Shown here piece by piece: positions 2,847-41,400 of a stretch of DNA of 53,137 nt. Under the pieces are notes generated by a model. The model did not search any database. It was not told the origin of the DNA and saw only the letters and a list, made by a program, of their open reading frames with translations. Every line of letters begins with the position of its first letter. Positions within the stretch are counted from its first letter, which is position 1. Origin of the DNA: a virus; IMG/VR virus record IMGVR_UViG_3300006226_000002. One strand, 5' to 3'. The position numbers and the translations under genes were made by a program.

Positions 2847-3023
2847 ATGAAGCTTGCAGATATGATTGTATCCGCGATAATCAAAAGAGGAATCTTTTAT
2901 GAAGCAAGGAATGTCGATACGATATTTGATATTCCTGTGCAAAACGAAGGCACAGAGCAGATTATCAAGATACAGTTCAAAGCAGAACATATGTCAATCA
3001 AAGTAGATAAGACGGAGACTTAG
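2847..3023 (+). CDS. 58-aa early protein (below the ORF-track cutoff)
   Basis: ATG 2847 follows GAAAGGAGA. The stop TAG lies in a terminator loop. Confidence 0.45.
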   Translation: MKLADMIVSAIIKRGIFYEARNVDTIFDIPVQNEGTEQIIKIQFKAEHMSIKVDKTET

Positions 3024-3060
3024 GTCTCTTTCTTTTTAGGAGTTTAGACTCCTTTTCTTT
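3015..3060 (+). terminator. Tandem hairpin terminators (GAGAC-TTAG-GTCTC and AGGAGT-TTAG-ACTCCT)
   Basis: Two consecutive stem-loops, each followed by a T-run. Confidence 0.55.
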
Positions 3061-3090
3061 ATGTTTTATCTTGAAAGGAGAAATCACCAT

Positions 3091-3882: not shown

Positions 3883-3901
3883 AGGAGGGTTGTAAACAGA
3901 T

Positions 3902-5076: not shown

Positions 5077-5094
5077 AAGTGAGGCAAATTAGCG

Positions 5095-5409
5095 ATGACT
5101 AGAACAGTATTAAACAAGTGGCACGATGTAATTAACGAAGGTGACATGTACCCAACTTACACACGGGATAGCTGGGAGATACCCGTAGACGGTACCGAGA
5201 TATGGTGTACAGGTTGGAAAAGAGGCCAGACCATTAAGCCTTATGGAGACGGAATGCACGTTATCGTCGGAAGCGAAGTCTATCATAACGACCAGTTGAT
5301 GGGGATTCTTGATAGATGGGTTTCTGATGGCGAAACATGGGGGATTGAAGGCGTGAAAATGATACGAGAACAGCGGATAAATGGTATATGGGAGAAGGTG
5401 GATAAATGA
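5095..5409 (+). CDS. Hypothetical protein
   Basis: ORF packed tightly against its neighbours. Confidence 0.55.
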   Translation: MTRTVLNKWHDVINEGDMYPTYTRDSWEIPVDGTEIWCTGWKRGQTIKPYGDGMHVIVGSEVYHNDQLMGILDRWVSDGETWGIEGVKMIREQRINGIWEKVDK

Positions 5410-5645
5410 GCAATTTACACCGTGAAGTATGGGAGGGATGGACGCCGCAGAATTTTATCGATGCTCTTTCTGGCGAAATTGACATGATTATGTCTGGAGG
5501 ATCATGGAGAAAGCCTTTCGAAACAAAGAAGGAAATGATTGATTATATTATCGATCACCAACCGTACTACAAAAAATTAATCCCAGAAGTTAATAAGTAT
5601 TTTATAAACCGTTATAGCTTGAAAGGAGAAAACACCGATGCATAA
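5406..5645 (+). CDS. Hypothetical protein
   Basis: ATGA overlap with the upstream ORF. Confidence 0.55.
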   Translation: MSNLHREVWEGWTPQNFIDALSGEIDMIMSGGSWRKPFETKKEMIDYIIDHQPYYKKLIPEVNKYFINRYSLKGENTDA

Positions 5646-6387
5646 AACATTAATAAACGCCATCAATCTTTTGAAAAATGTGGTCACCCACGAAGGAACT
5701 CCAGAGGAAATCACTAAAGCAGCATCATATTTAACCGCTTGCGACGAATGTGCAAACATCCATGACCGATCATACGACGATAACAAAATTAGGATACTCG
5801 TCGAAAAATATTGTGACGAAGGCACTCCAAACCTCAATGCTTTAAATGGTGCAAAACGTTATAAAATCGGAGATGTTATCGACTTCACTCTTAATGATGG
5901 CGAGGAAGTTTCAGCCATGGCGGTTCGCCAGGATACGGACGGTATGGTCTTTATATTTGTCGATTGTCTTGCTAAGGAATATTCGATGAATGATAACAAT
6001 ATCAACGAAGGCGGCTATGAGAACTCCGATTTACGCTGGAGACTTAATAGTGAAATTCTTGATCGGCTCCCTTCTGAAATCAAGAACTCCCTAGTCAAGT
6101 TCGATAATGGCGACTATCTTAGGCTTCCAACAGAAAAAGAGATATTCGGTGAGAATCCATATGGTGAAAACGAGCCAAAAACCGTTGCTCAATTTGAACC
6201 GATGAAACTGCGCCGGAACAGAATCGCTTTCCAAGGAAAAGAGGGCGATTGGGAATGGTATTGGTTGCAAAATTCGGTAAAAGGTTCGGCTCCGCATTTC
6301 GCCCGTGTGAGTAGCCTTGGTTATGCGAATAGCACCGGTGCCTCGACCTCCCTTGGAGTCCGTCCTTGCTTAAAAATCAAATCCTAG
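5638..6387 (+). CDS. Second DGR variable protein (C-type-lectin-fold-like C-terminus, ..GVRPC..); contains VR2
   Basis: GAAAGGAGAAAACACC RBS. The 3' end matches the TR with adenine-only mismatches. Shares GGY.NS.LRWRLN and WYWL motifs with the tail target. Confidence 0.85.
   Translation: MHKTLINAINLLKNVVTHEGTPEEITKAASYLTACDECANIHDRSYDDNKIRILVEKYCDEGTPNLNALNGAKRYKIGDVIDFTLNDGEEVSAMAVRQDTDGMVFIFVDCLAKEYSMNDNNINEGGYENSDLRWRLNSEILDRLPSEIKNSLVKFDNGDYLRLPTEKEIFGENPYGENEPKTVAQFEPMKLRRNRIAFQGKEGDWEWYWLQNSVKGSAPHFARVSSLGYANSTGASTSLGVRPCLKIKS
6284..6372 (+). repeat. DGR variable repeat 2 (VR2)
   Basis: Gap-free alignment to TR 46719-46807. All 17 mismatches are at TR adenines. Confidence 0.85.
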
Positions 6388-6663: not shown

Positions 6664-6999
6664 ATGGATAAGATGAAGATCATCGCATGTGACTTCGATG
6701 GTACCCTAGCTACAAATGCATGGCCGGATATTGGAGAACCTATATTTGAGACCATTATAAGGCTTAAACAGGAGCAAGAAAACGGCGCAAGAATTATTCT
6801 ATGGACAAATCGCGTCGGTATACCGCTTCAGAATGCAATTGATTGGTGTACTAATCATAACATTCAATTCGATGCCATCAACGAAAATCTTCCTAATATC
6901 ATTGAATCTTTCGGAGGAGATCCAAGAAAAATATTTGCTAATGAATATTGGGACGATCGTATGGTGTTTCTTTCCCATTTGAAGCATCCGGATAAATGA
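6664..6999 (+). CDS. HAD-superfamily hydrolase/nucleotidase-like protein
   Basis: IIACDFDGTL matches HAD motif I (DxDxT). Small single-domain size. Confidence 0.55.
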   Translation: MDKMKIIACDFDGTLATNAWPDIGEPIFETIIRLKQEQENGARIILWTNRVGIPLQNAIDWCTNHNIQFDAINENLPNIIESFGGDPRKIFANEYWDDRMVFLSHLKHPDK

Positions 7000-7000
7000 A

Positions 7001-7054
7001 TTCGCGTGAATTACACGCCATATAATGAAACCTAAAATTGAAAGGAGAATTACG
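7001..7054 (+). promoter_or_regulatory. Early promoter-like cassette, copy 5
   Basis: TTCGCG at 7001-7006 and TATAAT at 7021-7026. Confidence 0.5.
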
Positions 7055-8192: not shown

Positions 8193-8435
8193 ATGCACAA
8201 GAAGACTTTTGAGCTCGTAGAGTTTGACGGAGAAATCGACGAGATGTTAGGCGATGATTACGTACAAGTCCCGTCAGAACATCAGGCCGAAGCAGCGGAA
8301 CGCATACAATCTGGTAATCCGAAAGTCGATATTCGCGGCAAAACCCCTCTATCCGAGTGGGCCAGAGGGGTTAAGGGCGCCAACCGCAAGGAAAGACGAG
8401 CTGAGGCTAAGCGGATCCGTAAGGCGTTTAAGTAA
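8193..8435 (+). CDS. Hypothetical basic-tailed protein
   Basis: ATG 8193 follows TGGAGG. Confidence 0.5.
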   Translation: MHKKTFELVEFDGEIDEMLGDDYVQVPSEHQAEAAERIQSGNPKVDIRGKTPLSEWARGVKGANRKERRAEAKRIRKAFK

Positions 8436-8447
8436 ATGCTCTTCTAT

Positions 8448-8503
8448 CTCGCTAGAATAACTTAGCCTATTATGAAACAGAAATTTGAAAGGAGTAACTC
8501 ACC
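8448..8503 (+). promoter_or_regulatory. Early promoter-like cassette, copy 6 (TATTAT variant)
   Basis: CTCGCT at 8448-8453 and TATTAT at 8468-8473. Confidence 0.45.
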
Positions 8504-8779
8504 ATGAAAAAACTAGAGCTGCTAAAGACAGGGGCGTCTTTGGTCGTTTCCGTTGGAGTAGGAGCCATTGTAGGTAATGTTGTGAAATGCACGACTCCGG
8601 ACGATGTAAAAAAAGTAACAAAGGTTTGCATCGGAGTTGGAAGTCTTGTGTTAACAAGTATTGCTGGAGATATGGCTGCTAAGTACACGGAGGAGAAAAT
8701 TGACGCGGCAGTTAATGCGGTGAAAGGTCTTATTGAAGAGGAGATATCTGACGAACAAGTATCTGTGGAGGAAGCTTAG
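8504..8779 (+). CDS. Small membrane protein
   Basis: GAAAGGAGTAACTCACC RBS. Two hydrophobic segments. Confidence 0.55.
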   Translation: MKKLELLKTGASLVVSVGVGAIVGNVVKCTTPDDVKKVTKVCIGVGSLVLTSIAGDMAAKYTEEKIDAAVNAVKGLIEEEISDEQVSVEEA

Positions 8780-8793
8780 GCTTCTTCTTTTTA
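8769..8793 (+). terminator. Hairpin terminator GAAGC-TTAG-GCTTC plus T-run (family member)
   Basis: Stop TAG 8777-8779 lies in the loop. Confidence 0.5.
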
Positions 8794-8813
8794 TATTGAA
8801 AGGAGAAATCACC

Positions 8814-9044
8814 ATGAGAAAAATTAGACTTGTTATTGGCGGCGTATTCCTCACTGGAATGGCTTTCATATCAGGAGCTCGATGGATGCATCGGCTTCAC
8901 GAATTAGCGACGGATCAGTGTATGGAAAAACGCATTGAGACACGTAAAAATCCAAACGGAAAGACAGTAATCGTTGAAGATTCACGTGTTCGTCATTACG
9001 CTGGATATATTCCCAAAGAAAGGATGGCACAAAACAATGTCTGA
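8814..9044 (+). CDS. Small membrane protein
   Basis: ATG 8814 follows GAAAGGAGAAATCACC. Contains LVIGGVFLTGMAFISGA. Confidence 0.5.
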   Translation: MRKIRLVIGGVFLTGMAFISGARWMHRLHELATDQCMEKRIETRKNPNGKTVIVEDSRVRHYAGYIPKERMAQNNV

Positions 9045-9705
9045 TAACGATACAAGAGAAACACTGGCCGGCAACTTCCCATCAAACAGCAAAACCTCCA
9101 GGCAGAAATCCGCAAATGCTCCCGAAGATAAGAAACTCCAAAAAGTTGTTACTGGGACCGTAAAAAAACAAAAGCGTGGTTTCGGTAAAAAAATAGCCGA
9201 AACGTTCCTAGAGGACGACACCAAAAGTGTAGGTGAATATATCCTCCATGACGTCTTGATCCCCGCTGCCAAAGCCATGATAAGCGATATGGTTGGAGGA
9301 GGCATTGAGATGCTCCTCTTCGGAGAAAAACGTAATAGAAGCAGCAGTATTCGGCGTGATGGAGGAAGAAGCTATACAAGCTATGGGTCATATTACAAAT
9401 CTACAGACCGTGACAGAGACAGGCGAGACGAACGACGAGACATGTCTAGGACGGCTAGGGCCAGGCATGATTTCGATGAAATCGTACTTGAAACGAGAGG
9501 AGAAGCCGAGGAGGTGCTGTCTCATCTCGTCGACCTCTGTATCGACTATGGAATGGCTTCTGTCGCGGATCTCTACGATTTGGTTGGAATCACTTCACAA
9601 TTTACGGACAACAACTACGGATGGACCGATCTTCGTAACGCGAGTGTGTCCAGAGTCAGAGGTGGATATTTGATTAATCTGCCACGGACGCAGCCGTTGA
9701 ATTAA
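9037..9705 (+). CDS. Hypothetical protein (basic, RD/RS-rich centre)
   Basis: ATG 9037 overlaps the upstream stop. Confidence 0.5.
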   Translation: MSDNDTRETLAGNFPSNSKTSRQKSANAPEDKKLQKVVTGTVKKQKRGFGKKIAETFLEDDTKSVGEYILHDVLIPAAKAMISDMVGGGIEMLLFGEKRNRSSSIRRDGGRSYTSYGSYYKSTDRDRDRRDERRDMSRTARARHDFDEIVLETRGEAEEVLSHLVDLCIDYGMASVADLYDLVGITSQFTDNNYGWTDLRNASVSRVRGGYLINLPRTQPLN

Positions 9706-14913: not shown

Positions 14914-17900
14914 ATGGATTTCTATCAAATCATAGAAAATTGGTCTCAAAGTAAGATGGCAACAGAGATTTATCCGGATTTCATAGTAAAACGTTCAAAG
15001 GATTTGATGATTCGTGGGAGATCATTCTATGCAATATGGGACGCCGAGAATAAAATATGGTCGACCGACGAGTACGACGTTCAAAGATTGGTCGATTCAG
15101 AACTAGAAGATTATAAAAAACTCCAAGAAGAGAAGTACCCAGGACAAAAATATGTTATTAAGCGAATGAGTAACTTCTCATCAAAGATGTGGACAAATTT
15201 TAAAACCTATCTTACGCAGATGTCAGATAACTCCCATCAGCTCGATGAGAACCTAACCTTTGCAAACGATAAGATGAGAAAGATTGACTATATAAGCAGA
15301 TTTCTACCGTACCCATTAGAAAAAGGCGCGTTCGAAGCCTACGACGAAATAATGAGTACTTTATATGACCCTGGAGAGCGTGCGAAGCTTGAATGGGCTA
15401 TAGGCGCAATCGTCGCTGGAGAGGCTAAATATATTCAGAAATTTATTGTGCTATACGGAGAAGCAGGGAGTGGAAAGTCAACCTTTTTAAATATTGTGCA
15501 AAAACTCTTTCCCGGATATTACACGATGTTTGAAGCTAAGGCGTTGACTGGCAGTAATAATACGTTTTCGACGGAACAATTCAAGACTAATCCTTTGATC
15601 GCCATTCAACATGACGGAGACCTCTCGCGAATCGAGGACAACACTAAGTTAAACTCAATAGTTTCCCACGAGGAGATGGCGATGCGAGAGTTGTATAAAC
15701 CGTCATATACAGCTCGCTCGAATGCTTTCTTATTTATGGGTACGAACAAACCTGTAAAGATTACGGATGCGAAATCAGGAATAATACGCAGGCTTATAGA
15801 CGTAAAGCCTAGTGGAAACAAGGTACTTACTCAGCGCTATCATACCTTGATGTCTCAAATCGATTTTGAGCTTGGCGCAATAGCATATCATTGTCTCCAT
15901 GTGTATAGAAGCATGGGTAAAAATTATTATGCGTCTTATAGACCTTTGGAGATGATGTTTCAAACAGACGTGTTCTTTAATTTTGTTGAGGCAAGCTATC
16001 ATGTATTTAAGGAGCAAGATGGAGCTAACCTTAAGCAAGCTTATGATATGTATAAAGTGTATTGCGATGAAGCTCTTGTCGAGTTCAAACTTCCGCGTCA
16101 TAAATTTAGGGAAGAGTTGAAGTCGTATTTCAAAGTGTTTTCTGATTATACCCGCGTTGATGGGAAGCAAATACGCAGCTATTATAGTGGGTTTATTTCT
16201 GATAAGTTTACAGCAAGCGAGCCAGTTAAGGAAGAAAAACCAATCTCACTAGTTCTTGATAGCAATACCTCTATACTTGATGACCTGCTGGCGGATCGTC
16301 CGGCCCAGTACGCAACGGTTGTAAGTGAAATACCAGAGGGTAAATGGGTTGATGTTAAAACAAAACTATCGGATCTAAAAACTAAGGAGCTTCACTATGT
16401 AAAACCCCCTACCCAACATATTGTAATCGACTTCGATTTGAAAAATGGTTCTGGAGAAAAATCTTTAGAATTAAATCTCGAAGCCGCAAGTGCCTGGCCG
16501 TCCACTTATGCTGAGCTTAGCAAAGGGGGGGCCGGTATTCATTTGCATTACATATATGATGGAGATGTAAGTAAACTTAGCCGTGTGTATTCTGATGGAA
16601 TCGAAATCAAAGTATTCACGGGAAAAAGTTCGCTAAGGCGTAGGCTCACTAAATGTAACAACATCCCTGTCGCCACTATAAATAGCGGGCTCCCTTTGAA
16701 AGGAGAAAAACCAGTGATTAATTTTGATACTGTTCAAAGCGAGAAAAGTCTTCGCGATCTCATATCTCGAAATCTCAAGAAAGAGATTCATCCAGGAACA
16801 AAACCAAGTGTCGACTTCATTTGGAAAATTCTCGATGATGCATATAAATCTGGACTTCACTATGATGTTACCGATATGCGTCCGAAAATTCTTTCCTTTG
16901 CAAACAACTCAACAAACCAGTCAGATTACTGTATCAAGCTTGTTAATAAGATGCAGTTCGCCTCCGACGAGATAAGTAGTACTGTTTCGGAATATGATAG
17001 CGAGGAATTAATATTCTTCGATGTTGAAGTATTCCCGAATCTATTTGTTGTTGTCTGGAAGAAAGCCGGCGGGCAGAAAGTCAAGATGTTTAACCCGTCT
17101 CCACAAGATATGGAGGAACTCTTTAAGTTCAGACTCGTTGGATTCAATTGCCGGCGTTATGATAATCATATCTGCTATGCAAGATATATTGGATATGATA
17201 ACAGGAAGCTCTTTGAGCTCAGTCAGAGAATTATCAATAATAGCAGGAATGCGATGTTTGGTGAGGCCTATAATCTGTCTTACACAGATGTCTATGATTT
17301 TGCTTCAGCCGGAAATAAGATGAGTCTTAAAAAATGGGAAATTAAACTAGGGATTCATCATCAAGAGCTTGGTCTTCCCTGGGAAGAGGATGTTCCGGAA
17401 GAGCTATGGGATAAAGTTGCAGATTATTGCGGAAACGATGTTGATGCAACAGAAGCAACCTTCAACCATCTTTCTGGAGACTGGGCAGCTAGGCAAATTC
17501 TTGCGGCACTTAGTGGATTATCTGTTAATGATACCACCAATCAGCATACCATTAAGATTGTATTCGGTGATGAAAAGAAACCACAAAGCCAGTTTGTCTA
17601 CACTGATCTAAGTGAGATGTTCCCCGGATATAAGTTCGAGAATGGAGTTAGTACTTATCGTGGTGTTGTTGTCGGCGAGGGTGGCCGAGTCTATGCAGAA
17701 CCAGGAATGTACACCAACACTCCGGTTCTTGACGCAGTATCCATGCATCCAACAAGTATTGAGCAGCTAAATTTGTTTGGTCCTTATACCAAGAATTTCA
17801 GCGATCTTAAGCTTGGTCGAGTTTCAATCAAGCATAAGGATTATGAGACATTAAAAACCCTGCTCAATGGTAAACTTGTCCCCTTCATCGAAGATGCTCT

Positions 17901-18909
17901 CGGACAGAATCCGAAATTCACCCTCAAAGATGTCTCAAACGGACTCAAAACAGCAATTAATTCAGTATACGGACTTACCTCGGCAAGCTTTGAGAATCCA
18001 TTCAGAGACCCTAGGAACATTGACAACATCGTTGCTAAACGCGGAGCTCTATTTATGGTGGATCTTCAATTCGCAGTTCAGGAGAAGGGGTTTACAGTTG
18101 CTCACATCAAGACCGACTCCATCAAGATTCCCGATGCGACTCCAGAAATTATTGAGTTCGTTTATGAGTTCGGTAAGAAGTATGGGTATGAGTTTGAGCA
18201 TGAGGAAACATATGAGAAATTCTGTCTAGTAAACGATGCGGTCTATATTGCAAAAATTGGTTGGCATGCCGAAAAGGAATTTATTGGAACATGGACTGCT
18301 ACAGGAGCGCAATTTGCGCAGCCATATGTATTTAAAACTTTATTCTCTCATGAGCCCATAGTGTTTGGTGATATGTGCGAGACTAAAACCGTTACCTCGG
18401 CATTGTATCTCGACATGAACGAAGGTCTTGGAGAGGATGAACATAACTATCACTTCGTTGGTAAAGCCGGTTCATTCTGTCCGATTAAGCCAGGATGTGG
18501 CGGTGGACTTCTTCTTCGTGAGAAGGATGGAAAATACTATGCCGCTACAGGAAGTAAGGGTTATCGATGGCTTGAAGCAGAGATGGTTTCAAATCTTGGG
18601 AAGGAGGACGATATAGACCGCAATTACTACATTGGTCTAGTCGACTCTGCTGTCAAAGATATTTCTGTATTCGGAGACATTGAATGGTTCATCGGGGACA
18701 AAGAGATAGAGATCGATTATCCAATCGGCTTCAACGATACTCCTCCATGTGGTAATACCATAACTTGTTTGGAATGTTCGTTAAGTCCGGAATGTGCCTT
18801 GTATGAAAAGATGCTCTTAGACTGCTCGGATAAAGAGGAGCCTAAGCGAATGTATCCTTCTTGTGAAGAATGCCCTCATTTAGTTTCATGTCCAGGTCTA
18901 CCATTTTAA
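14914..18909 (+). CDS. Fusion replicase: SF3/P4-type helicase, AEP primase-like domain, and family-B DNA polymerase with 3'-5' exonuclease
   Basis: Walker A YGEAGSGKST (about 15457). AEP-like IVIDFD and GGAGIHLHY (about 16420-16550). Exo I FFDVEVFPN, Exo II RRYDNH, Exo III YCGNDVD. PolB motifs: A LDAVSMHPTS, B KTAINSVYG, C HIKTDSI. Cys-rich C-terminus. Confidence 0.8.
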   Translation: MDFYQIIENWSQSKMATEIYPDFIVKRSKDLMIRGRSFYAIWDAENKIWSTDEYDVQRLVDSELEDYKKLQEEKYPGQKYVIKRMSNFSSKMWTNFKTYLTQMSDNSHQLDENLTFANDKMRKIDYISRFLPYPLEKGAFEAYDEIMSTLYDPGERAKLEWAIGAIVAGEAKYIQKFIVLYGEAGSGKSTFLNIVQKLFPGYYTMFEAKALTGSNNTFSTEQFKTNPLIAIQHDGDLSRIEDNTKLNSIVSHEEMAMRELYKPSYTARSNAFLFMGTNKPVKITDAKSGIIRRLIDVKPSGNKVLTQRYHTLMSQIDFELGAIAYHCLHVYRSMGKNYYASYRPLEMMFQTDVFFNFVEASYHVFKEQDGANLKQAYDMYKVYCDEALVEFKLPRHKFREELKSYFKVFSDYTRVDGKQIRSYYSGFISDKFTASEPVKEEKPISLVLDSNTSILDDLLADRPAQYATVVSEIPEGKWVDVKTKLSDLKTKELHYVKPPTQHIVIDFDLKNGSGEKSLELNLEAASAWPSTYAELSKGGAGIHLHYIYDGDVSKLSRVYSDGIEIKVFTGKSSLRRRLTKCNNIPVATINSGLPLKGEKPVINFDTVQSEKSLRDLISRNLKKEIHPGTKPSVDFIWKILDDAYKSGLHYDVTDMRPKILSFANNSTNQSDYCIKLVNKMQFASDEISSTVSEYDSEELIFFDVEVFPNLFVVVWKKAGGQKVKMFNPSPQDMEELFKFRLVGFNCRRYDNHICYARYIGYDNRKLFELSQRIINNSRNAMFGEAYNLSYTDVYDFASAGNKMSLKKWEIKLGIHHQELGLPWEEDVPEELWDKVADYCGNDVDATEATFNHLSGDWAARQILAALSGLSVNDTTNQHTIKIVFGDEKKPQSQFVYTDLSEMFPGYKFENGVSTYRGVVVGEGGRVYAEPGMYTNTPVLDAVSMHPTSIEQLNLFGPYTKNFSDLKLGRVSIKHKDYETLKTLLNGKLVPFIEDALGQNPKFTLKDVSNGLKTAINSVYGLTSASFENPFRDPRNIDNIVAKRGALFMVDLQFAVQEKGFTVAHIKTDSIKIPDATPEIIEFVYEFGKKYGYEFEHEETYEKFCLVNDAVYIAKIGWHAEKEFIGTWTATGAQFAQPYVFKTLFSHEPIVFGDMCETKTVTSALYLDMNEGLGEDEHNYHFVGKAGSFCPIKPGCGGGLLLREKDGKYYAATGSKGYRWLEAEMVSNLGKEDDIDRNYYIGLVDSAVKDISVFGDIEWFIGDKEIEIDYPIGFNDTPPCGNTITCLECSLSPECALYEKMLLDCSDKEEPKRMYPSCEECPHLVSCPGLPF

Positions 18910-21538: not shown

Positions 21539-24181
21539 ATGAGGTCAGAACTAAAGCACTACGGAATGCCAAGACGCTCAGGCAGATACCCTTGGGGCTC
21601 TGGTAAAGACCCTTTTCAAAGCGCTATCGGATTCCTTGGAATTGTGGATGAATTACGGAAGCAAGGTCTTAGCGAAGTTGAAATTGCTAGAGGGCTTGGC
21701 ATAACAACGTCACAATTGCGTGCTCGTAAATCTTTAGCTAAAGAAGAAGTTAGGGCTGCGAATGTAGCCATGGCAATAAGGCTTCAAGAAAAAGGAATGT
21801 CGAACGTAGCCATTGGAGAGCGGATGGGTATCAATGAGTCTTCTGTTCGAAGTTTACTTGACCCAGCCAAAGCCGAAAGAGCAGCAATAACGCAAGCGAC
21901 ATCTAATATGCTAAAAGAGAGCGTTTCGAAATTTGGCTATATTGATGTTGGAACTGGCGTTGAAAACCATGTTGGTGTTAGTCGGACAAAGCTTAATACG
22001 GCCATAGAAGAGCTCCGTGAGCAAGGATACAAAATTCATTATGTTAAAGTTGAGCAGTTAGGTATTCCTGGCCAATTTACTTCCGTAAAAGTTTTAGCTG
22101 GACCAGATAGCACTTATTCCGAAGTTTTTAACAATAAGGATCTTATTCAACCAATAATGGGTCGCTCTGAAGATTTTGGAAGAACCTACTCCGATCTTGG
22201 TTTAAAACCCATTCAATCTGTTAAAAGCGATACCGTTATGGTCAGATACGGAGAAGAAGGAAAAGCAAAAGATGGCGTAATTGAGCTCCGCAGAGGAGTA
22301 GACGAATTAAATCTTGGAGATTCAAAATATGCTCAAGTTCGTATCGGGGTTGATGGTACACACTATCTAAAAGGCATGGCAATATATTCTGATGATATGC
22401 CTGATGGCGTAAATATCATTTTTAACACAAATAAGAATGATACTGGCATAAAGACCGATGCCATGAAAGTAATGAAGGATGATCCAGATAATCCTTTTGG
22501 TTCAACTATAAAAGTGGATGGCCAAAAAGGAGCCTTAAACATCGTTAATGAAGAAGGTGACTGGAACAACTGGTCTAAAACAATATCCTCCCAGGTTATG
22601 TCAAAGCAATCCCCCGCTTTAGCAAAACAGCAATTAGAATTAGCATATCAGCTTAAAAAGGAAGAATATCAAGAAATATCATCCTTGACTAATCCAGCGG
22701 TTAGAAAACAGCTTCTAATTTCTTTTGCCGATGATTGTGACGCTGCTGCCGTTCATTTAAAAGCAGCCGCACTTCCTCGTCAATCTACAAAAGTAATTCT
22801 TCCAGTTACGGATTTAAAAGAAGGAGAAATATATGCTCCAAGCTATAGAGATGGTGAAAACGTAGTATTAATTCGCCATCCGCATGGAGGAACTTTTGAA
22901 ATTCCGCAACTGACGGTAAATAACAAATCTCCATCAGCCCAAGCCATAATGAAAAATGCTCAAGATGCTGTAGGTATAAACCCTAAAGTTGCTCAAAAGC
23001 TTTCAGGTGCGGATTTCGATGGAGACACAGTAATTGTTATTCCAAACCCGACAGGTGCTATTCGAACCCAAGCATCCCTTAAAGGGCTACAGAATTTTGA
23101 TCCCATTGAATCCTATCCTGCTTATGAGGGAATGCCAAGAATTAAACCTCAAACAATGCAGACCAAGATGGGAGAGGTCTCTAACCTCATAACTGATATG
23201 ACAATTAAAGGGGCCAATGTTGATGAGATTGCACGCGCTGTTCGACATTCGATGGTGATTATAGATTCTGAAAAGCATCATCTAAACTATAAGCAGTCAT
23301 ACATCGACAATGGTATAGCCTCTCTTGCCGAGAAGTATCAAGGTAGCGCCAGAGGTGGGGCCTCCACAATCATCTCCAAGGCATCATCAGAGATTCGCGT
23401 TCCTGAAAGGAAGAGTAGAATCGATGTAGATCCTCAGACAGGACAGAAAATTCACACCGAAACGGGAGCTACTTATGTGGATTCCAATGGACAAACAGTA
23501 GCTAGAACCACCCGATCCACCAAGATGGCAGAGGCTACATGGAACCCAAGGACAGGGGCCTTAGAGGTAAATGGGAAACCTATGTCGTCAGGGACCCCCA
23601 TGGAAAGTGTATATGAGAACCATGCCCGTCAATTAAAGGCCTTGGCTAATACGGCTAGGAAAGAAGCAGTGTCGACGCAAACTATACCATACAGCCCCTC
23701 AGCACGGAACGCCTATGCCCAGGAGGTTAGCACCCTTAATGCAAAACTCAATGTTGCCCAGAAGAACCGGCCTCTGGAGAGGCAGGCTCAAATAATTGCT
23801 AACGCCGTGGTCACTAAGAAAGTACAGGCCAATCCTGGCATGGATAAGGATGATATCACCAAAGTTAAGAATCAGGCCCTAGCCGAAGCAAGAACCCGTA
23901 CCGGGGCTAACAGAAAAGAGAGTCGGGTAGACATAGCTCCTAAGGAATGGGAAGCTATACAGGCCGGTGCCGTTAGTAATAACATGCTGACCCAGATACT
24001 TAACAACACCAACCTTGACACTGTTAAACAGTACGCCACGCCTAGAAGAGAAAGCGCATCGCTCTCAAGCTCTAAGATTAAACGAGCTCAGGCAATGTTA
24101 AACTCTGGTTACACACAAGCCGAAGTTGCTCAAGCTCTTGGCGTTTCTGTGTCAGCTTTAGTGAATGAACTATACAAATGA
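21539..24181 (+). CDS. Single-chain two-barrel RNA polymerase-like protein (YonO/QDE-1-like) with HTH modules
   Basis: Beta-like segment GDSK..HYLKGMAIYSDDMPDGVNIIFN (22316-22426). Beta'-like segment VVLIRHPHGG..SGADFDGDTVIVIP, with DFDGD at 23012-23026. HTH-like segments near both termini. Confidence 0.65.
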   Translation: MRSELKHYGMPRRSGRYPWGSGKDPFQSAIGFLGIVDELRKQGLSEVEIARGLGITTSQLRARKSLAKEEVRAANVAMAIRLQEKGMSNVAIGERMGINESSVRSLLDPAKAERAAITQATSNMLKESVSKFGYIDVGTGVENHVGVSRTKLNTAIEELREQGYKIHYVKVEQLGIPGQFTSVKVLAGPDSTYSEVFNNKDLIQPIMGRSEDFGRTYSDLGLKPIQSVKSDTVMVRYGEEGKAKDGVIELRRGVDELNLGDSKYAQVRIGVDGTHYLKGMAIYSDDMPDGVNIIFNTNKNDTGIKTDAMKVMKDDPDNPFGSTIKVDGQKGALNIVNEEGDWNNWSKTISSQVMSKQSPALAKQQLELAYQLKKEEYQEISSLTNPAVRKQLLISFADDCDAAAVHLKAAALPRQSTKVILPVTDLKEGEIYAPSYRDGENVVLIRHPHGGTFEIPQLTVNNKSPSAQAIMKNAQDAVGINPKVAQKLSGADFDGDTVIVIPNPTGAIRTQASLKGLQNFDPIESYPAYEGMPRIKPQTMQTKMGEVSNLITDMTIKGANVDEIARAVRHSMVIIDSEKHHLNYKQSYIDNGIASLAEKYQGSARGGASTIISKASSEIRVPERKSRIDVDPQTGQKIHTETGATYVDSNGQTVARTTRSTKMAEATWNPRTGALEVNGKPMSSGTPMESVYENHARQLKALANTARKEAVSTQTIPYSPSARNAYAQEVSTLNAKLNVAQKNRPLERQAQIIANAVVTKKVQANPGMDKDDITKVKNQALAEARTRTGANRKESRVDIAPKEWEAIQAGAVSNNMLTQILNNTNLDTVKQYATPRRESASLSSSKIKRAQAMLNSGYTQAEVAQALGVSVSALVNELYK

Positions 24182-24194
24182 AAGGAGAAACGCA

Positions 24195-24323
24195 ATGCGT
24201 AACAAAAGTTTGTCCGTTCTTGAACACTTACACAACAAGTCGTTTAAATACTCCTTTCATGGTGGTAGTTCCGACACAGTGATGTTAGGTGTACAGGCGA
24301 CATGGGAAGGAGGAGAGGGTTAA
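24195..24323 (+). CDS. 42-aa ORF (below the ORF-track cutoff)
   Basis: AAAGGAGAAA RBS. TAATG overlap with the next ORF. Confidence 0.35.
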   Translation: MRNKSLSVLEHLHNKSFKYSFHGGSSDTVMLGVQATWEGGEG

Positions 24324-24565
24324 TGCGGGAGGCAATGCTAACCACGGCTGACAACCCTTTTGATCCTTTTACACAATTCGATTCTTGGTTTGCTTTTGAT
24401 TCATCAAAGAATTACAATTCGTGTTCTTACTTAGCAAGAATTGCAAAAACTTCTGATGAATTAAGCGATGCTGATAATGCTATCGCCATCGAGCAAGCCA
24501 TCGATGAGATTGTCCAATTGAATCTTCTTGGAAACTACGTTAAAGTCACAAGAAAAGTTGGTTGA
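24323..24565 (+). CDS. Hypothetical protein
   Basis: ATG 24323 follows GGAAGGAGGAGAGGG. Confidence 0.5.
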   Translation: MREAMLTTADNPFDPFTQFDSWFAFDSSKNYNSCSYLARIAKTSDELSDADNAIAIEQAIDEIVQLNLLGNYVKVTRKVG

Positions 24566-24857
24566 TTCAGTATAATAATCAATTAATCATCAATAAGTAA
24601 AGCTAAGTAGAGCCTTACCGAGAAAGACTGGAGATAGGGGGTGGTGCTCGCGCAGGCTACCCCCACCCGAAATCGCCGAACTCCTCATTTTTTCTCCGCG
24701 GGGATATTTTAGGCCTTCCCTTTTGGTTTGGGGGCGTCTAAGGGTCAGCGTCTGATTAGATATTCTCTACTCAGGGTTGGTGAGCCTGGGCTCCTTTCAA
24801 GGGTCTTGACGCTGGCTCTTAAATGCCCCCAAACTATATTTAAAGGAGGCCAAAGTC
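24566..24857. other. GC-rich, highly structured non-coding region (candidate cos/pac site or structured leader RNA)
   Basis: Longest intergenic gap in the late region. A roughly 30-bp imperfect long-range stem pairs 24724-24752 with 24808-24836. There is also a GGGTGG/CCACCC hairpin at 24639-24668. Confidence 0.45.
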
Positions 24858-25196
24858 ATGCGGAATCCTGGTAAACCAGATCCAAAGAAACCAATAAAGC
24901 GGCCTCCAGCAACAACGCCAGAGGCAAGAGAAAATCAGATGATTGCCTTAGCTGTCGATTTGGCCGAAAGGCAGCTCATGAATGGTACAGCAAGCTCTCA
25001 AGTGGTTACGCATTTTCTGAAATTAGCCTCAAGCAAAGAGCGCCTTGAGCGGGATCTCCTAAAACAAGAGGTCGAGCTCAAGAAAGCAAAGACCGAAGCC
25101 ATCCAGTCGTCTAAACGAGTCGAAGAACTCTACATCAATGCTCTTAATGCAATGCGCAGCTACACCGGTTCGAGAGGAGATGTGGAAGATGATTAA
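24858..25196 (+). CDS. Putative small terminase / packaging accessory protein
   Basis: Called from its position upstream of HNH and TerL. Small, basic N-terminus, helical. Confidence 0.35.
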   Translation: MRNPGKPDPKKPIKRPPATTPEARENQMIALAVDLAERQLMNGTASSQVVTHFLKLASSKERLERDLLKQEVELKKAKTEAIQSSKRVEELYINALNAMRSYTGSRGDVEDD

Positions 25197-25608: not shown

Positions 25609-26021
25609 TCGTCGTCGATTCAGAGGATGAAGAAACCAAAGATCCTAAGAACAGCATTCTAACTTCTGTGAAAAAGCTTCTTGGGATTGAGGAAGAGTAT
25701 GAACACTTTGACATGGAGCTCATACTCAACATTAATTCTGTCTTTACAATCCTGAATCAGCTTGGTCTTGGTCCCATAGAAGGCTTCAGTATTGAAGACA
25801 AAGAAGACACATGGGATTCCTTTCTTGAAGATCGTAATGATCTAAACGCAGTCAAGACTTATGTTTATATGAAAGTTCGCCTCATGTTCGATCCTCCGCA
25901 GATGGGCTATTTGGTCGATTCGATCAAGAAACAATGCGATGAGTTCGAATGGCGTCTCAATGTTCAAGCTGAAACTATTCAGAGCTCAAAGGAGGCTAGT
26001 CAAAATGGAAGTGAATCCTAA
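25584..26021 (+). CDS. Head-tail connector (gp6-like) protein, putative
   Basis: The pattern ILTSVKKLLGIEEE..D..L resembles gp6-like adaptors. Confidence 0.4.
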   Translation: MPMADTDVIVVDSEDEETKDPKNSILTSVKKLLGIEEEYEHFDMELILNINSVFTILNQLGLGPIEGFSIEDKEDTWDSFLEDRNDLNAVKTYVYMKVRLMFDPPQMGYLVDSIKKQCDEFEWRLNVQAETIQSSKEASQNGSES

Positions 26022-26379
26022 TACTTTACAACACTACGGTATTCTTGGTATGAAGTGGGGCGTTCGCCGCGAGCGAGGACCAGATGGACGTGTTGGTACT
26101 AAAAAATCTCAAGGCTCTGGCGATTATCAAAAGTCTAGAGCTCAATTAAGACGAGGTTCAAAAAATCTTTCAACTGCCGAGCTCAAGTCACTTACTAATC
26201 GTCTTCAGCTGGAGAGGCAGTATAGCGATCTAAACCCAAGCGACTATAAACGAGGCATGGATGTTGTAAAAACTATTACGGCGGCAGGGTCAACTGCCGC
26301 TTCTTTTTATGCCCTTTCAAAAACTCCCCTTGGGCAAGATGTTATCAAAGCAATAAAGCCTATTATAAGTAGGAGGTAA
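26005..26379 (+). CDS. Hypothetical protein with an N-terminal HYGILGMKWGVRR motif
   Basis: ATG 26005 follows AAGGAGG. Confidence 0.5.
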   Translation: MEVNPNTLQHYGILGMKWGVRRERGPDGRVGTKKSQGSGDYQKSRAQLRRGSKNLSTAELKSLTNRLQLERQYSDLNPSDYKRGMDVVKTITAAGSTAASFYALSKTPLGQDVIKAIKPIISRR

Positions 26380-35049: not shown

Positions 35050-35436
35050 ATGGGAGTAGTTTCTTTCAAACATGGAGGAGATTTCAAAAATCTTGAGAAG
35101 TTTTTCAAAGGTTACAATACGCAAAAAATGATAAGTATTCTTGAACGATATGGTCAAGAAGGAATTCAGGCTCTTGCGTCAGCTACTCCTGTTGATTCTG
35201 GCCTAACAGCGAGCTCCTGGGGATACCGAACGAGTGTCTCCAGGGGTTCTTTTTTTATTATGTGGACTAATAACAACATGACCAGCAACGGGACCCCGCT
35301 TGTCATTCTTTTACAATATGGACATGGAACGAAAAATGGAGGGTTTGTTCAAGGAAAAGAGTTTATCAATTCGGCAATTCAACCAGTTATGGACAAGATT
35401 GCGAATGCTGTATGGCAGGAGGTTAGATCTCTATGA
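35050..35436 (+). CDS. HK97 gp10-like head-tail/tail-completion protein
   Basis: ATPVDSGLTASSW and LLQYGHGT motifs. Confidence 0.45.
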   Translation: MGVVSFKHGGDFKNLEKFFKGYNTQKMISILERYGQEGIQALASATPVDSGLTASSWGYRTSVSRGSFFIMWTNNNMTSNGTPLVILLQYGHGTKNGGFVQGKEFINSAIQPVMDKIANAVWQEVRSL

Positions 35437-38400
35437 GCAGGACAATCGATGAACGCATTGTTGATATGCAATTCAACAATAAACAGTTTGAAACGGGGAT
35501 ACAAGATAGTCTTAGATCCATAGACAATCTTAAAAAGGGCCTTGGCGACATGGATGGAGCCGGAAAAGCCCTTGATTCTGTTGGAGAATCTGCCAATAAA
35601 CTAGGGTTTAATTTTAGCGCCTTAGAAATAATGGTAGCAACAGTCCTCGCGAAACTTACAAGTGCGGTCATCGATTTCGGGCTTGCTGCTGCTCAATCTC
35701 TTTTTTTAGAGCCGATGATGAAAGGTTTCTCTCAATACGAAGAGAAAATTGGCTCTATGAAAGCCATTATGAATGCGACTCAGATGTCTGCTAAAGAAGT
35801 TGGCGAAGCTCTGGCTGGAGTCATCTTCTACGCGGACGAAACCAGTTTCAGCTTCGATCAAATGTCTACCGCGATTAGACTGTTTACTAGCTCTGGAATT
35901 GAGATAGAAGACGCAGTTAAACAAATACAGGGGTTAGGTTCAGCATCTGCTTTAGCGGGTGTTCCCATGGAGAAAATGGGTTCGGTATTTGATGCGGTTA
36001 GCAAAGCAATCGGTCAAGGTTCTATGAAGATCAGAGAGTGGGATACGCTGCAACTTGCTGGCTTAACCACTTCTATGGAATTTAAGCAGATACTTCTTGA
36101 TACTGCCGTTGAGATGGGTACTTTAACTAAGCAGGGTGAAGGTTATGTAGCGCATTACATCGAACCTATGTCTGGTAAAGTTAAAGAATTAGAAGTATCT
36201 ATTACTGATATGAGAACTGCTTTGAAATCGGGATGGCTAGATAAAGCAGTTTTACAAGAAGCGCTAAATCAATTTGGCGATTATGCCAATGACGTATATT
36301 TGTTGACTGAGAAATTTACTGAAAACTCAGAAGAATTGCTTGCTAAATACGGCAAAACAATGGAGGACGTATTCAAAGAAGTTGGTGCATCTGCTGAAGA
36401 ATCCACAGAGATAACCAGACTTATGACTGAAGAGAATTATTCTTTTGAGAAAGCACTTCTCGAAGTAAAACAAACGAGCCTCATCGCGGCACAAGCTATG
36501 AACATACTCAGTGATGGAACTGATCATTTTGGTGAGAGAGGCATGCGTGCTGCTCAAGAAGCTCGAACTTTAACAGAGACGCTCGAAGCTGTTGGAAACG
36601 CCATTGCTTCGAGATGGAGAGATACTTGGGAGTTACTGATAGGTGACGTTGACGAAGCTACTGAGTTATTTGGCGGCTTAGTCGAAGCATTGTGGGAACT
36701 ATTTGTTGCTTCTGGGGATACTCGAAACGCAATTTTGCAACTTTGGAGAGGTGTGGATGAGGGCGATTTAGATGGTCGAACCATCCTTCTCGAAGGCTTA
36801 ACTAATATAGGTAAAGCGTTTTTACAAGTTATAGAAGCTATCAGTGGTGCATGGGGCGATATATTTCCACCGATTACTGCTCAGCAGCTTTTAGATCTAA
36901 CTGAGAGATTTAGAGATTTCACAGAACGACTCATTATGAGTGATGAAACCGCAGACAAGGTAAAAAGAACGTTAACAGGCTTATTTGCTGCTCTAGATCT
37001 TGTTGGAATGGCTATCAAAGCCGTTTTCCAAGTCGCAGGTATGCTAATCGGAGCGTTACTACCTGTTGGTGACGGTGTTCTAGGCGTCACGGCTGGTCTT
37101 GGTGATTTTATTGTGGCTCTTCGTAATGCCGCGATAGATGGCGATATTTTCGGTAAAGGCGTCGAAATAATAGGCACTGTGCTCGATAAAGTAAGAAGTG
37201 TAATAAGTGTAGCTGCTGATGGCGTTAAAGCCGGGATCACCAGACTTAGAGACTACTTTGGACAATTCGGCGGTATTGATCTAGGTCCACTTAAAATATT
37301 TAGTAGTGATGTGGAGGTAGCCTTTACCCCTTTTACATTCATTGCTAACGTGTTTAAGAAGGCCTTTGAGGTAATAGTTGCAGTCTTTCAGTGGGCAGCG
37401 CCCATTGTAGGTCCAATAGCACAAAAGATTGGCCAGGCATTTACATCGTTTGGTAAAGCGATAGGAGATGCTATTAAGAGCGGAGACTTCAAAAGTCTAA
37501 TTGATTTGGTGAACACGGGATTACTTGGTGGGGTACTCCTTGGACTTAAAAAGTTCATAGATTCTTTATCCGATGTAACGTCCGGTGCTTCTGGGATACT
37601 ATCTGGAATAACAGGAATACTCGATGGTGTGCGGGGATCTCTGGAGGCTTATCAATCAAAACTTAAAGCACAAACTCTACTTACAATAGCAGCCGCAATC
37701 GGAATTCTTGCTGCGGCTTTACTTGTTCTATCGACGATTGACGCGGGTGATATGGCAGCAGCCCTAGCTGCAATTACAGTCCTGTTTGTTGAACTTGCCG
37801 CAACGATGCTCGTTCTAAGTAAATACATGGGAAGCATCAAAATGGGAGGAATTGCTCTTCAGATGGTCGCAATTTCAGCGGCCATATTAATTCTCTCATC
37901 CGCGATGAAGAATGTCGCAGATCTCTCCTGGGAAGAAGTTCTCAAAGGAGCAGCTGGTATCGCTGCTCTATCAGCAATTTTAGTCAAGTCAGCCAACGCC
38001 CTTTCAAAAAGCTCCGGTAAATTAATAAGTGGTGGACTTGGTCTAATAGCATTCGCGGCAGCCATATTAGTACTTACTTCTGCCGTAGAAAAGCTAGGGC
38101 AACTCGACATAGCTACTTTAACTAAAGGGTTAATTGCTGTTGGAATATTGATGGCTGAAATTGCAGTCTTCTCGCAAATCGTCAAGCCAGATAAACTGAT
38201 GAGCACAGGAATAGCCATGATTGCGGTTGGAGCCGCTCTTGCTATTATGGCTAATGCTATAAAAACTCTTGGCGAGCTAAGCATCGAAGAGCTTATTAAG
38301 GGTCTAACAGGTATTGGTGTGATACTGGCTTCATTTGCAGGGTTTACTCAAATTGTCAAGCCCGAGAAGCTAGTTAGTACAGGAATAGCCATGATTGCCA

Positions 38401-41400
38401 TAGGTACAGCTCTTAACATTATGGCCAATGCCGTTTCTACTTTTGGTGGCATGAGTCTCGAGGAGCTTGCTAAAGGCCTCATAGCAATGGGCGTAGCTCT
38501 TGCCTCCATAGCAGGGTTTACTCAAATCATTAGTACAGAAAAGATACTTACTACAAGCATTGCTATGATAGGTTTTGGAGCAGCTCTTCTCATTATAGCT
38601 CAGGCTGTAAAAAGCTTTGGAAGCATGTCCTGGGAAGAAATCGCTAAAGGTCTGGTTGCTCTTGCTGGTTCTCTTATCATTATGGCCGTGGCAATGAATG
38701 CTATGACCGGAGGATTGGCTGGTGCTGCGGCAATGCTTGTAATGTCCGCAGCCATTTTAGTCCTAGCGCCAGCGTTAATGATGCTCGGCTCTATGAATCT
38801 AGCAGAAATAGGATTAGCTTTATTGGCTCTGGTTGGTGTGTTTGCGGTTGTCGGAGTTGCAGGTTTGGTTCTAGCACCACTAACTCCTGTGATACTAGGA
38901 TTGGCCGCAGCGATAGCACTGCTTGGCGTTGGTGTCTTTGCAATAGGTGCCGGATTACTTGCATTCTCAGCAGGATTAACCGCCCTAGCAGTAGCCGGAA
39001 CAGCCGGAGCCGCAGCTTTAGTCATTGCCGTAACATCCATTATTAGTTTAATACCCATGGCTGTTGGCGCACTTGGTGAAGGATTATTGATGTTCATTCA
39101 AGTGATAGCCGATGGCACACCAATAATCATGCAAGCTTTGACTCAAATCATCATGGGTATGATTCAGGTTCTTGTCAGCTTAGCCCCTCAACTCGTCGAT
39201 GCGATATTTGTCTTTCTTAACAAGATGCTAGATACAGCTCTGTCCAACGTTCCTAAGATGGTAGATGCAGGATTAAAGTTGTTGACTGGTATATTGGATG
39301 GAATACGTAAAAACATTGGCGATATTGTTGCCACAACATTATTAATCATTGCTGAGTTCTTAAAAGGATTGGCAGCTGGTATCCCAAGTGTTGTTTCGGC
39401 CGGTGTCGATATAATCGTGGCTTTCATCGGAGCAATCTCTAAAGAGAGAGTTAGGCTTATTGATGAAGGATTCAAGATGATAATCGATTTCGTCAATGGT
39501 CTTGCGGATGCAATACGCAATAATACGCCAACGCTTGTAACGGCCTTTGCAAATCTCGCAAGCGCGATGATTGAAGGTCTTGTTGGTGGGTTATTTGCAG
39601 GCATCAAAGGGGCTGTTGACGCTGTAAAGAATCTTGGTGGCGCCATAATCGATGGCTTCAAAGGCGTCCTTGGCATCGCATCGCCATCGAAAGTGTTTGA
39701 GGAATTCGGTGAAAATACCCCAGAGGGTTATATTGTTGGAATAAACAATAAAACCCCTGCTATGGTAGCCGCAGTAACAACAATGGCTTTGATAGCCGTT
39801 AAAGCTACAGAGGAAGCTTTCGGGATAAACGGCAAGAAATCAACAGTGTTTGAGGAATTTGGCGTAACTAATGCTGAGAGCTTCATTAGCGGTCTAACCG
39901 GTATGGGTAACGCAATAAAGGAATCATTTAAGACGGCGTTCGCTGGTGAGGAAAATGAAGAAGTTTTAAAGAGCATGACCGGCCTTATCGATGAAGCGCT
40001 GAAAACGATTGAACAGAGGTTGGAGTCTTATACAGATCTTGCAACTGATCGGTTTAATAAGATATCTACAGAATCTGAAGTCAGCGTTAAAGAGATGATA
40101 GAAAATCTCAAGCACAATCAAAAGGCTATAGCTGAATGGGCAGAAAACATTGCCCTTCTTGCCAGTCGTGGGTTGAACGAAGGCCTTCTTGAAGAACTGC
40201 GTCAAGCTGGTCCTAAGTCTGCCGGAGAAGTAAAGGCTCTTGTGGCGGCTTCGGATAAGGAAATACAAGAGCTTAATACAGTTATGGCAAAAGGCGGCGA
40301 AGTTGCCACTCAAGCATTGGCTGTCTCCGTAGGCTCAGGAGCCCCCCTTCTGGTGGAAGAGGGTAAGAGCCTCGTTGACTCTATTGCTGAAGGGCTTACA
40401 AGCACCTCCAGTGTAAACGACGCAATGGCGATGATGATTGACCATGCTAAGCGCGTTGGATTGCAAGAATTCAATTCTCCAGTGTTCCAAGAAATGGGGA
40501 AAGAAGTACCAGAAAAGGTCGCAAAAGGGATATCCTCTGGCTCTGGTAGCGTCAAATCAGCAATTACTCAAGTGGGTAAGGATGCTGAACCAGCAGCTAA
40601 GGACGCCGGTACTGGTATTGCTAAAGAAATGGAGAGCGGTCTTCAATCTAATTCGGATGCATTCAAACAGACCGGAGATAAATATGGTACTGACTTTGCT
40701 AATGCGGTAAGTAACACTCAGACAGCAGCTAAAACAGCAGGTACTACGGTTACTAATGCAGCAGAACAAGGTCTTAAGTCCAACCAAGCAGTCTACGGTC
40801 AAACAGGCACCAAGTATGGTCAGGATTTCTCCAATGCGCTGTCTAATACCCAAACGATGGCAAGGACAGCCGGCACAACAGTCACTAACGCTGCTGAACA
40901 AGGTCTTAAGTCTAATCAAGCAGTCTACGGTCAAACAGGCACTAAGTATGGTCAAGATTTTGCTAATGCGCTTAGTAATACCCAGACTAAAGCCAAAGAG
41001 GCTGGTATTGCCGTTGCCAAAGCTGCTGAAGCTGGAATCAAGTCGCTGTTAGAGCCTGTTAATGAGTTCGAGAAGCTTGGTGTCGCTGTTGCCGAAGGAT
41101 TCATCAAAGGTATGGAGAGCATGCTTGCAGAGGTTATCAAAGCAGCCAAGAAGCTTGCTAGGTCGGCTAAGGATGCTATAGAGGATGAACTCGACATTAA
41201 TTCTCCTTCTAGAGTTCTCTACGCCGATGGCGTCTATGGTGGATTAGGTTTTGTAAATGGCTTGGCTAGCATGATTGACGATGCGGCCAACATTGGTCGG
41301 AAGATTGGATCCGTCGCTATTGATAGTATCAAAGATGCAATCTCTAAGATTGACGACGTGATCAACTCCGACATCGATCTCGTCCCGACAATCACCCCCG

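Follow-up and report, generated by a model that had tools for sequence, protein, structure and literature searches.

The IMG/VR virus record IMGVR_UViG_3300006226_000002, a stretch of 53,137 nucleotides (nt) referred to here as the window, constitutes a circularly closed genome of 53,010 bp, with positions 1-127 repeated exactly at 53011-53137 and a GC content of 41.9%. Open reading frame (ORF) calling on the window gives a gene of 880 amino acids (aa) at 21539-24181 on the plus strand, with an ATG start. An initial annotation, made from the sequence, had interpreted its product as a single-chain two-barrel RNA polymerase (RNAP) fused to helix-turn-helix (HTH) modules. Our analysis supports the two-barrel polymerase interpretation, which is nevertheless a rediscovery: the gene is a new, divergent member of a family already known from computational work. 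Script placement found the ORF and all the quoted peptides where the annotation had put them: GDSKYAQ...IIFN at aa 260-296 (nt 22316-22426), NVVLIRHPHGG from aa 441 (nt 22859), AVGINPK...VIVIP with its end at nt 23044, DFDGD at aa 492-496 (nt 23012-23026), and three HTH-like peptides at nt 21665-21733, 21791-21862 and 24107-24172. The features of the gene, in order along the chain, are the following.

21539..24181, plus strand: 880-aa single-chain two-barrel polymerase homologue of the PHROG 4291/phage 1706 ORF75 family (ORF, phrog_4291 match, ORF75 homology).
21557..21604, plus strand: invariant N-terminal motif HYGMPRRSGRYPWGSG, aa 7-22, disordered in the model and DUF7211-like (H7, G9, S14, G15, R16 and G20 invariant; alignment with DUF7211 N-termini).
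21632..21859, plus strand: two tandem N-terminal HTH modules, aa ~32-62 and ~72-107 (Pfam; phrog_664 at aa 36-108; model helices 32-41/46-53/57-84 and 89-96/100-107).
21959..22099, plus strand: possible winged-helix-like module, aa ~141-187 (weak Pfam HTH_11/HTH_36 matches at aa 143-167, E 0.03-0.13; helix-helix-strand-strand in the model).
22235..22552, plus strand: first double-psi beta-barrel (DPBB), beta/Rpb2-like, aa ~233-338, with candidate residues D245, R268 and K278 (strand pattern, invariance, weak hhalign alignment, local Foldseek DPBB matches).
22787..23044, plus strand: second DPBB, beta'/Rpb1-like, aa 417-502, with R446-x-P448-H449 and the putative metal-binding D492-F-D494-G-D496 (invariance, hhalign to YonO, sub-threshold Pfam RdRP match).
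23147..23278, plus strand: conserved helical hairpin after barrel 2, aa 537-580, with MGEVSNLITDM, in YonO IGE(I/Y)SNNITKI (invariant residues, alignment with YonO 593-602).
24068..24175, plus strand: C-terminal HTH module, aa ~844-879 (Pfam HTH_3 and HTH_38; model helices 844-855/860-867/871-879).

Family membership was established by comparisons at the protein level. The product matches phrog_4291 ("RNA-dependent RNA polymerase" in PHROGs) over essentially its full length (aa 3-878 of 880, E=0, 1224 bits) and shares 44% identity with Lactococcus phage 1706 ORF75 (E=8e-169) in an alignment spanning N-terminus, core and C-terminus. Relatives at 40-56% identity were found by tblastn in 250 phage records, all but one of which cover at least 80% of the query; megablast of the gene against the phage records gave no match, and relatives are detectable at the protein level only. 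These phages infect Arthrobacter, Gordonia, Streptomyces, Lactococcus, Rhodococcus, Microbacterium and Faecalibacterium or are human-associated siphoviruses, and the gene occupies the right genome end in those phage records that were examined. Further relatives at ~50% identity occur in metagenome-assembled genomes of gut Clostridia, metagenomes hold at least 8000 candidates, and the representative library contains 917 family clusters at 50% identity (E<=1e-30). With phage 1706 ORF75 the protein shares the N-terminal HYG...WGSG motif, HTHs at both ends, DFDGD, synteny and a position near the genome end; the differences are sequence divergence (at most 56% identity to phage records), the host (Clostridia-like, of the gut), and the lifestyle and equipment of the window phage, a temperate one with a diversity-generating retroelement. 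An identical protein is encoded on a 53,151-bp ENA contig. Some relatives are differently built at the N-terminus: in the 1789-aa protein P0337 the polymerase region (query aa 109-833) occupies residues 1054-1786 and an extension of ~1050 residues replaces the N-terminal HTHs, while the extensions of P0246 and P0249 are of ~170 residues.

The family has been noticed before. The phage 1706 protein was listed in 2010 among five "YonO-like" families carrying eight invariant residues (PMC2919709), and the HTH-containing signature gene of the actinophage-Firmicutes phage supercluster described by Koert et al. in 2021 (bioRxiv 10.1101/842583) encodes the same protein family; these authors reported HTHs at both ends, an HHpred value of 95.7% to PF05183 obtained with a family alignment, and a DxDGD loop, and made the comparison with YonO and crAss. 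The name given to the protein in most of the phage records is "helix-turn-helix DNA-binding protein", few say "RNA-dependent RNA polymerase", and the JGI names refer to HTH or the CsgD family.

Conservation was assessed in 60 representatives of 50%-identity clusters, which are 44-66% identical to the query and have a mean column identity of 39%. Invariant in all 60 are D245-G246, Q266, R268, K278-G279, R446, P448, H449, G451 and D492/D494/G495/D496, along with M544, G545, N549, L550 and D553 of the hairpin; R446, P448, D492, D494 and D496 are invariant also in a shallower family alignment. Judged from the aligned columns, such invariance exceeds chance. Ruprich-Robert and Thuriaux (PMC2919709) described eight residues common to all two-barrel polymerases, which in QDE-1 are D709, R738 and K743 of barrel 1 and R962, P964, D1007, D1009 and D1011 of barrel 2. 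We map D245, R268, K278, R446, P448 and D492/D494/D496 onto these eight universal active-site residues; all eight positions are invariant in the window family, the assignments of the five barrel-2 residues are secure, and those of the three barrel-1 residues are provisional. The E. coli segments that the initial annotation had quoted for comparison proved exact on a sequence check (beta 1063-1099, beta' 421-471). In the beta barrel, its pairing of GDSK with GDK is probably slightly out of register, by one turn, because K263 is not invariant and R268/K278 form the invariant basic pair.

The invariance bears directly on the possibility that the protein is an HTH DNA-binding regulator only, its barrel region being a catalytically dead scaffold. 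The HTH and CsgD-family names in most of the 250 phage records and at JGI agree with such a regulator, as does the restriction of above-threshold Pfam matches to HTH families; these annotations, however, merely reflect what Pfam detects, and eight active-site positions unchanged in 60/60 representatives at such a low mean column identity are not expected of a dead site. A dead enzyme is therefore very improbable.

A full-length AlphaFold2 model was derived from 43 homologues (predicted local distance difference test score, pLDDT, 75.7) and searched against the PDB with Foldseek. QDE-1 ranked first (E=1.5e-9, probability 1.00); beta'/Rpb1 chains, as weak matches, and small proteins with a classical DPBB came next. 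Since the global template-modelling score (TM-score) of the full-length model against QDE-1 was low (0.28), the core (aa 201-620, pLDDT 71.6) was modelled alone. For the core model, the PDB holds 21 matches at E<=0.001, without exception polymerases of the single-chain two-barrel kind, namely QDE-1 from two fungi, P74-26 gp62, P32 gp64, P23-45 gp96, and RDR2 from maize and Arabidopsis; below these it matches designed DPBB proteins, p97 N-domains and beta' chains of multisubunit RNAPs. In BFVD, Foldseek matches of the model include proteins named "RNA dependent RNA polymerase". crAss gp66 is absent among the top 50 structural matches of the core model. The initial annotation had named a lack of DPBB folds as the finding that would overturn it; the Foldseek matches are to two-barrel polymerases and DPBB domains, and the two-barrel DPBB arrangement is present in both AlphaFold2 predicted models. 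The fold, the active-site motifs and the order of barrels that it proposed, beta-like first and beta'-like second, all stand.

QDE-1 and RDR2 combine the best structural match (E down to 5.7e-10, probability 1.00) and the same barrel order with only 12-16% identity and core TM-scores of 0.36-0.38; QDE-1 differs further in having no HTH modules listed and in being a eukaryotic enzyme of RNA silencing. This likeness raises the question of whether the window protein is a true RNA-dependent RNA polymerase, one that would copy transcripts of the phage or the host, for instance in regulation or counter-defence. Besides the QDE-1 and plant RDR2 matches, such an activity would fit the RdRP family PF05183 being the sole polymerase match in Pfam and the name borne by PHROG 4291 and several GenBank records. 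The name, however, was given on the basis of homology, not of an assay, entry titles record QDE-1 crystals with DNA templates, YonO is a demonstrated DNA-dependent RNAP, and three or four DNA-binding HTH modules favour a DNA substrate or target; we consider an RNA-copying enzyme quite unlikely.

Among phage proteins, the Thermus phage enzymes P74-26 gp62, P32 gp64 and P23-45 gp96 are likewise single-chain two-barrel RNAPs (structural E 2.5e-8 to 6e-6). The first two are non-virion RNAPs of the P23-45 gp64 family; gp96, a tape-measure-fused virion RNAP, also has DFDGD. They differ in that sequence homology is confined to a weak match of the DFDGD segment (E=0.2), in that no HTH modules are mentioned for them, and in that they transcribe pre-early and early genes, whereas the position of the window gene suggests a middle-to-late switch. 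Without a sigma factor, P23-45 gp64 and gp96 are associated with promoter motifs of their own. Apart from this weak gp96 match, phmmer and hmmsearch comparisons of the protein and both family profiles with PDB sequences found HTH proteins only.

YonO of SPbeta resembles the window protein in being a single chain with the same barrel order, in the collinear R-x-P-H, DxDGD and G-x-x-S-N-x-I-T motifs, in a weakly aligned barrel-1 R...KG pair, and in the location of its gene upstream of late and structural genes. An hhalign comparison of the 60-member profile with a YonO profile (E=0.038, probability 1.4%) pairs R446-x-P448-H with YonO R492-x-P494-H, DFDGD with DNDGD (D535/D537/D539), and MGEVSNLITDM with IGEYSNNITKI; a cropped barrel-1 profile alignment, itself weak (E=0.068), pairs R268/K278 with YonO R266/K271 and leaves the register of the aspartate ambiguous. 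The two proteins differ in that HMMER detects no homology and the E=0.038 of hhalign is not significant, and in the presence in YonO of four invariant C-terminal cysteines, C799, C802, C816 and C819 (CxxC...CxxC), its homologues having no Pfam-listed HTH. The cysteine pattern suggests a zinc ribbon in YonO where the window family has an HTH. Membership of the YonO family itself was considered and rejected, as the alignment of the shallower family profile to the single YonO sequence by hhalign is spurious and the profile-profile alignment of the correct region lacks statistical support; on these comparisons, the window protein is related to YonO at the superfamily level only. YonO is the DNA-dependent RNAP for SPbeta late genes and is inactivated by mutation of its aspartate triad (Forrest et al.); whether it recognises promoters alone or needs other factors is unknown (Forrest et al.).

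The HTH modules at both ends of the chain, which the initial annotation had described, were detected by Pfam. At the N-terminus, HTH_23 (32.5 bits, cut-off 24.6) and Sigma70_r4_2 (30.6 bits, cut-off 25.7) both match best at aa 72-107 and have one more stretch nearer the start of the chain, while at the C-terminus HTH_3 (29.7 bits, cut-off 23) covers aa 851-874 and HTH_38 aa 842-878. The annotation had called this fusion unusual; it is instead the norm for the family, conserved in 60/60 representatives and published in 2021. The N-terminal HTH resembles sigma-70 region 4 in passing the Sigma70_r4_2 cut-off, and the family profile weakly aligns with the extracytoplasmic function sigma factor SigL (E=0.16). 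It differs from sigma-70 in that no region 2 accompanies it, Sigma70_r2 giving no match at E<=1 in the protein, and in that it matches HTH_23/homeodomain-like, transposase and resolvase families equally. By its profile matches, the N-terminal module is an HTH of the general class of sigma region 4, not a sigma factor.

The initial annotation had also placed the gene at the boundary between replication and late genes, and the neighbourhood agrees. Upstream, replication genes follow the order DNA polymerase/primase, single-strand annealing protein (SSAP)/single-stranded DNA-binding protein, helicase, endonuclease and exonuclease; the last ends at 21535, and the polymerase homologue starts 4 nt past it. 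Downstream lie a small ORF, a gap, a 112-aa ORF, an HNH endonuclease, a connector, a DUF7211 protein, the terminase large subunit and the portal. This gene order is kept in phage 1706 and five metagenomic relatives. The phage is temperate, as judged from the presence of a tyrosine integrase. Three further features bear on the discussion below.

14914-18909: DNA polymerase/primase, 1331 aa, with primase-like and polymerase regions (phrog_4210, primase PHROGs).
25939-26379: DUF7211 protein (Pfam).
49372-50604, minus strand: tyrosine integrase (phrog_1); all other long genes are on the plus strand.

Behind the polymerase gene lie two short ORFs (24165-24323 and 24302-24565) that overlap each other and have strong ribosome-binding sites; where the window has this pair, relatives carry one gene of 87-95 aa (phrog_4303), and its start or frame in the window is uncertain.

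The gene product could serve replication, as an origin-bound polymerase that makes primer or activator RNA (transcriptional activation of an origin) or polymerises DNA, with the HTHs recognising the origin. The gene is the last of the conserved replication block in the window, in phage 1706 and in the metagenomic relatives, Koert et al. (10.1101/842583) assign it to the "replication module", and the two-barrel superfamily includes the DNA polymerase PolD. However, the 1331-aa neighbour already joins primase-like and polymerase regions, the characterised phage single-chain two-barrel enzymes YonO, gp64 and gp96 are transcription enzymes, and PolD is absent among the top 50 structural matches, which makes a replication function unlikely in our judgement.

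We favour a different model, to which we give a probability of roughly 0.6, whereby the gene product is a single-polypeptide polymerase that transcribes the phage late genes and is targeted by its HTHs. The active site would form between the two double-psi beta-barrels of one chain, the beta-like barrel providing D245, R268 and K278 and the beta'-like barrel providing R446, P448 and the magnesium-binding D492/D494/D496. This core would be flanked by DNA-binding modules, comprising two N-terminal HTHs, possibly a winged helix, and the C-terminal HTH, and these modules would target the enzyme to DNA or the promoter in place of a sigma factor. The polymerase is probably expressed with the middle genes, since its gene starts so closely behind the exonuclease gene and ends the replication operon. 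It would then transcribe the long late operon on the same strand, encoding packaging, head, tail and lysis functions, which starts ~680 nt downstream. The role in late transcription is one that we infer by positional analogy with YonO. Built-in promoter recognition of the sigma-region-4 kind and DNA-templated RNA synthesis, both proposed in the initial annotation, are treated here as hypotheses.

In favour of this model are the predicted two-barrel fold, the invariant active-site positions, family membership, the HTHs and the conserved synteny behind the replication genes. Two negative results also speak for it: a plus-strand sigma-70-like promoter was not found in the gap at 24566-24857, nor a sigma factor in the early ORFs screened. 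YonO, gp64 and gp96 provide functional precedents.

Several observations weigh against this model. The global TM-scores to QDE-1 are low (0.28-0.38), and the closest structural relatives, QDE-1 and RDR2, are RNA-dependent enzymes. By sequence, the protein is tied only weakly to characterised enzymes: QDE-1 is out of reach of HMMER profiles, and the Pfam RdRP match falls below threshold (17.8 versus 23.8 bits, E=1.4e-3) and covers aa 483-583 only. The barrel-1 mapping of D245/R268/K278 is based on invariance, pattern and the E=0.068 alignment, not on superposition. No phage-specific promoter was identified, the conserved block described below as block 2 may be merely a terminase-binding site, and the screen for a sigma factor covered early ORFs, a subset of all those in the window. 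Finally, the literature searched contained no biochemical or genetic study of the PHROG 4291 family.

Between the small ORF and the 112-aa ORF lies a GC-rich non-coding gap of 292 nt (24566-24857), in which two blocks are conserved beyond the flanking coding sequence in five relatives.

24636..24705, no strand: probable cos site, conserved non-coding block 1, ~500 nt past the gene (conserved in five relatives; phage 1706 ends).
24778..24802, plus strand: conserved block 2 (TGGTGAGCCTGGGCTCCTTTCAAGG, with a GAGC-N4-GCTC palindrome), ~55 nt upstream of the first late ORF (near-invariant in five relatives).

Block 1 is probably the cos site because the physical ends of phage 1706 fall inside its equivalent, mapping into the ATCGCC...CTC...TTTC sequence. 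Block 2 is present in a single copy in the window (0 expected by chance) and is a candidate for either a late promoter/operator or a cosB-like terminase site. Additional copies that might mark a phage promoter were sought in the window and there were none; matches to a short core are reverse complements of ribosome-binding sites. No sigma-70-like promoter was found on the plus strand within 24566-24857, and an Rfam scan of the whole window gave no match. The proximity of cos and a weak phrog_7067 match also led us to consider a small terminase subunit as the product of the 880-aa gene; this was rejected because the fold and active site are those of a polymerase, and is further countered by the separate 112-aa ORF (24858-25196) in the usual small-terminase position.

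Elements of a different kind lie in the early region. Six copies of a sequence of ~50 nt, TTTCGC-N15-CTATAATGAAAATCTA followed by a ribosome-binding site, lie at the following positions.

811-861: early element.
1796-1846: early element.
2200-2250: early element.
2789-2839: early element.
6997-7047: early element.
8444-8494: early element.

All six carry a perfect TATAAT, and they are confined to the early region, with none in the late region. They are probably strong early promoters for the host RNAP with an added conserved operator-like sequence.

The extreme N-terminus of the polymerase homologue resembles a motif of other proteins. Few parts of the chain are as conserved as its first 22 residues (x-E-L-x-H-Y-G-x-P-R-R-S-G-R-Y-P-W-G-S-G); pLDDT is below 50 for aa 1-30 in the model. 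The DUF7211 motif L-x-H-Y-G-I-L-G-M-K-W-G can be aligned with these residues save for a 4-residue insertion. The resemblance is confined to that alignment: the DUF7211 model (PF23847), which is 25 residues long, does not match, and Pfam has nothing at E<=1 in the first 54 aa. In the form HYGxxGM[KR]WG, the DUF7211 motif is carried at the N-terminal end, or close to it, by several proteins that are not otherwise related and whose genes cluster around terminase and portal; besides the one in the window, these include those listed below from two relatives.

4933-5334 (relative L008): DUF7211-motif protein.
5355-5819 (relative L008): DUF7211-motif protein.
8357-8806 (relative L008): DUF7211-motif protein.
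8821-9223 (relative L008): DUF7211-motif protein.
2501-3889 (relative L017): DUF7211-motif protein.

In phage 1706, ORF7 has two copies of the motif and is annotated in the record as a structural protein; ORF75 bears no structural annotation. A literature search found no publications on DUF7211 or its motif. A docking function common to the polymerase N-terminus and the DUF7211 proteins is possible but speculative. In an extended form of the model, the polymerase would be sigma-independent, with its own HTHs recognising the promoter, and in addition its N-terminal motif would dock onto a shared virion or packaging partner, such that the enzyme is delivered with the DNA or late transcription is coupled to cos and packaging; this we regard as a long shot.

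How single-chain two-barrel RNAPs find promoters is an open question, and the window family carries DNA-binding modules in the same chain. Those modules, the great abundance of the family and its role as the signature gene of a phage supercluster across two bacterial phyla make it a practical system for the study of minimal, sigma-free, promoter-specific transcription. Many of the 250 sequenced phages can be cultivated on Arthrobacter, Gordonia, Streptomyces or Lactococcus. To a family that had already been described in silico, the window contributes a further divergent member, and the label "HTH DNA-binding protein" in most records deserves correction.

Three other features of the window were recorded. 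The diversity-generating retroelement comprises a reverse transcriptase ORF at 46878-48146 (phrog_1423), an 87-nt template repeat just upstream (46720-46806), and variable repeats VR1 (45579-45665) and VR2 (6285-6371) at the 3' ends of the ORFs 44839-45678 and 5638-6387, respectively; VR2 is ~40 kb distant, and the mismatches fall at template adenines in 18/18 and 17/17 cases. A small early ORF at 2452-2817 matches the N-terminal domain of dATP/dGTP diphosphohydrolase (PF18909, E=2e-21). Finally, a 132-nt tandem duplication with 75% identity occupies 40680-40943 within a 2082-aa ORF (35433-41681), presumably a tape measure or large tail protein.

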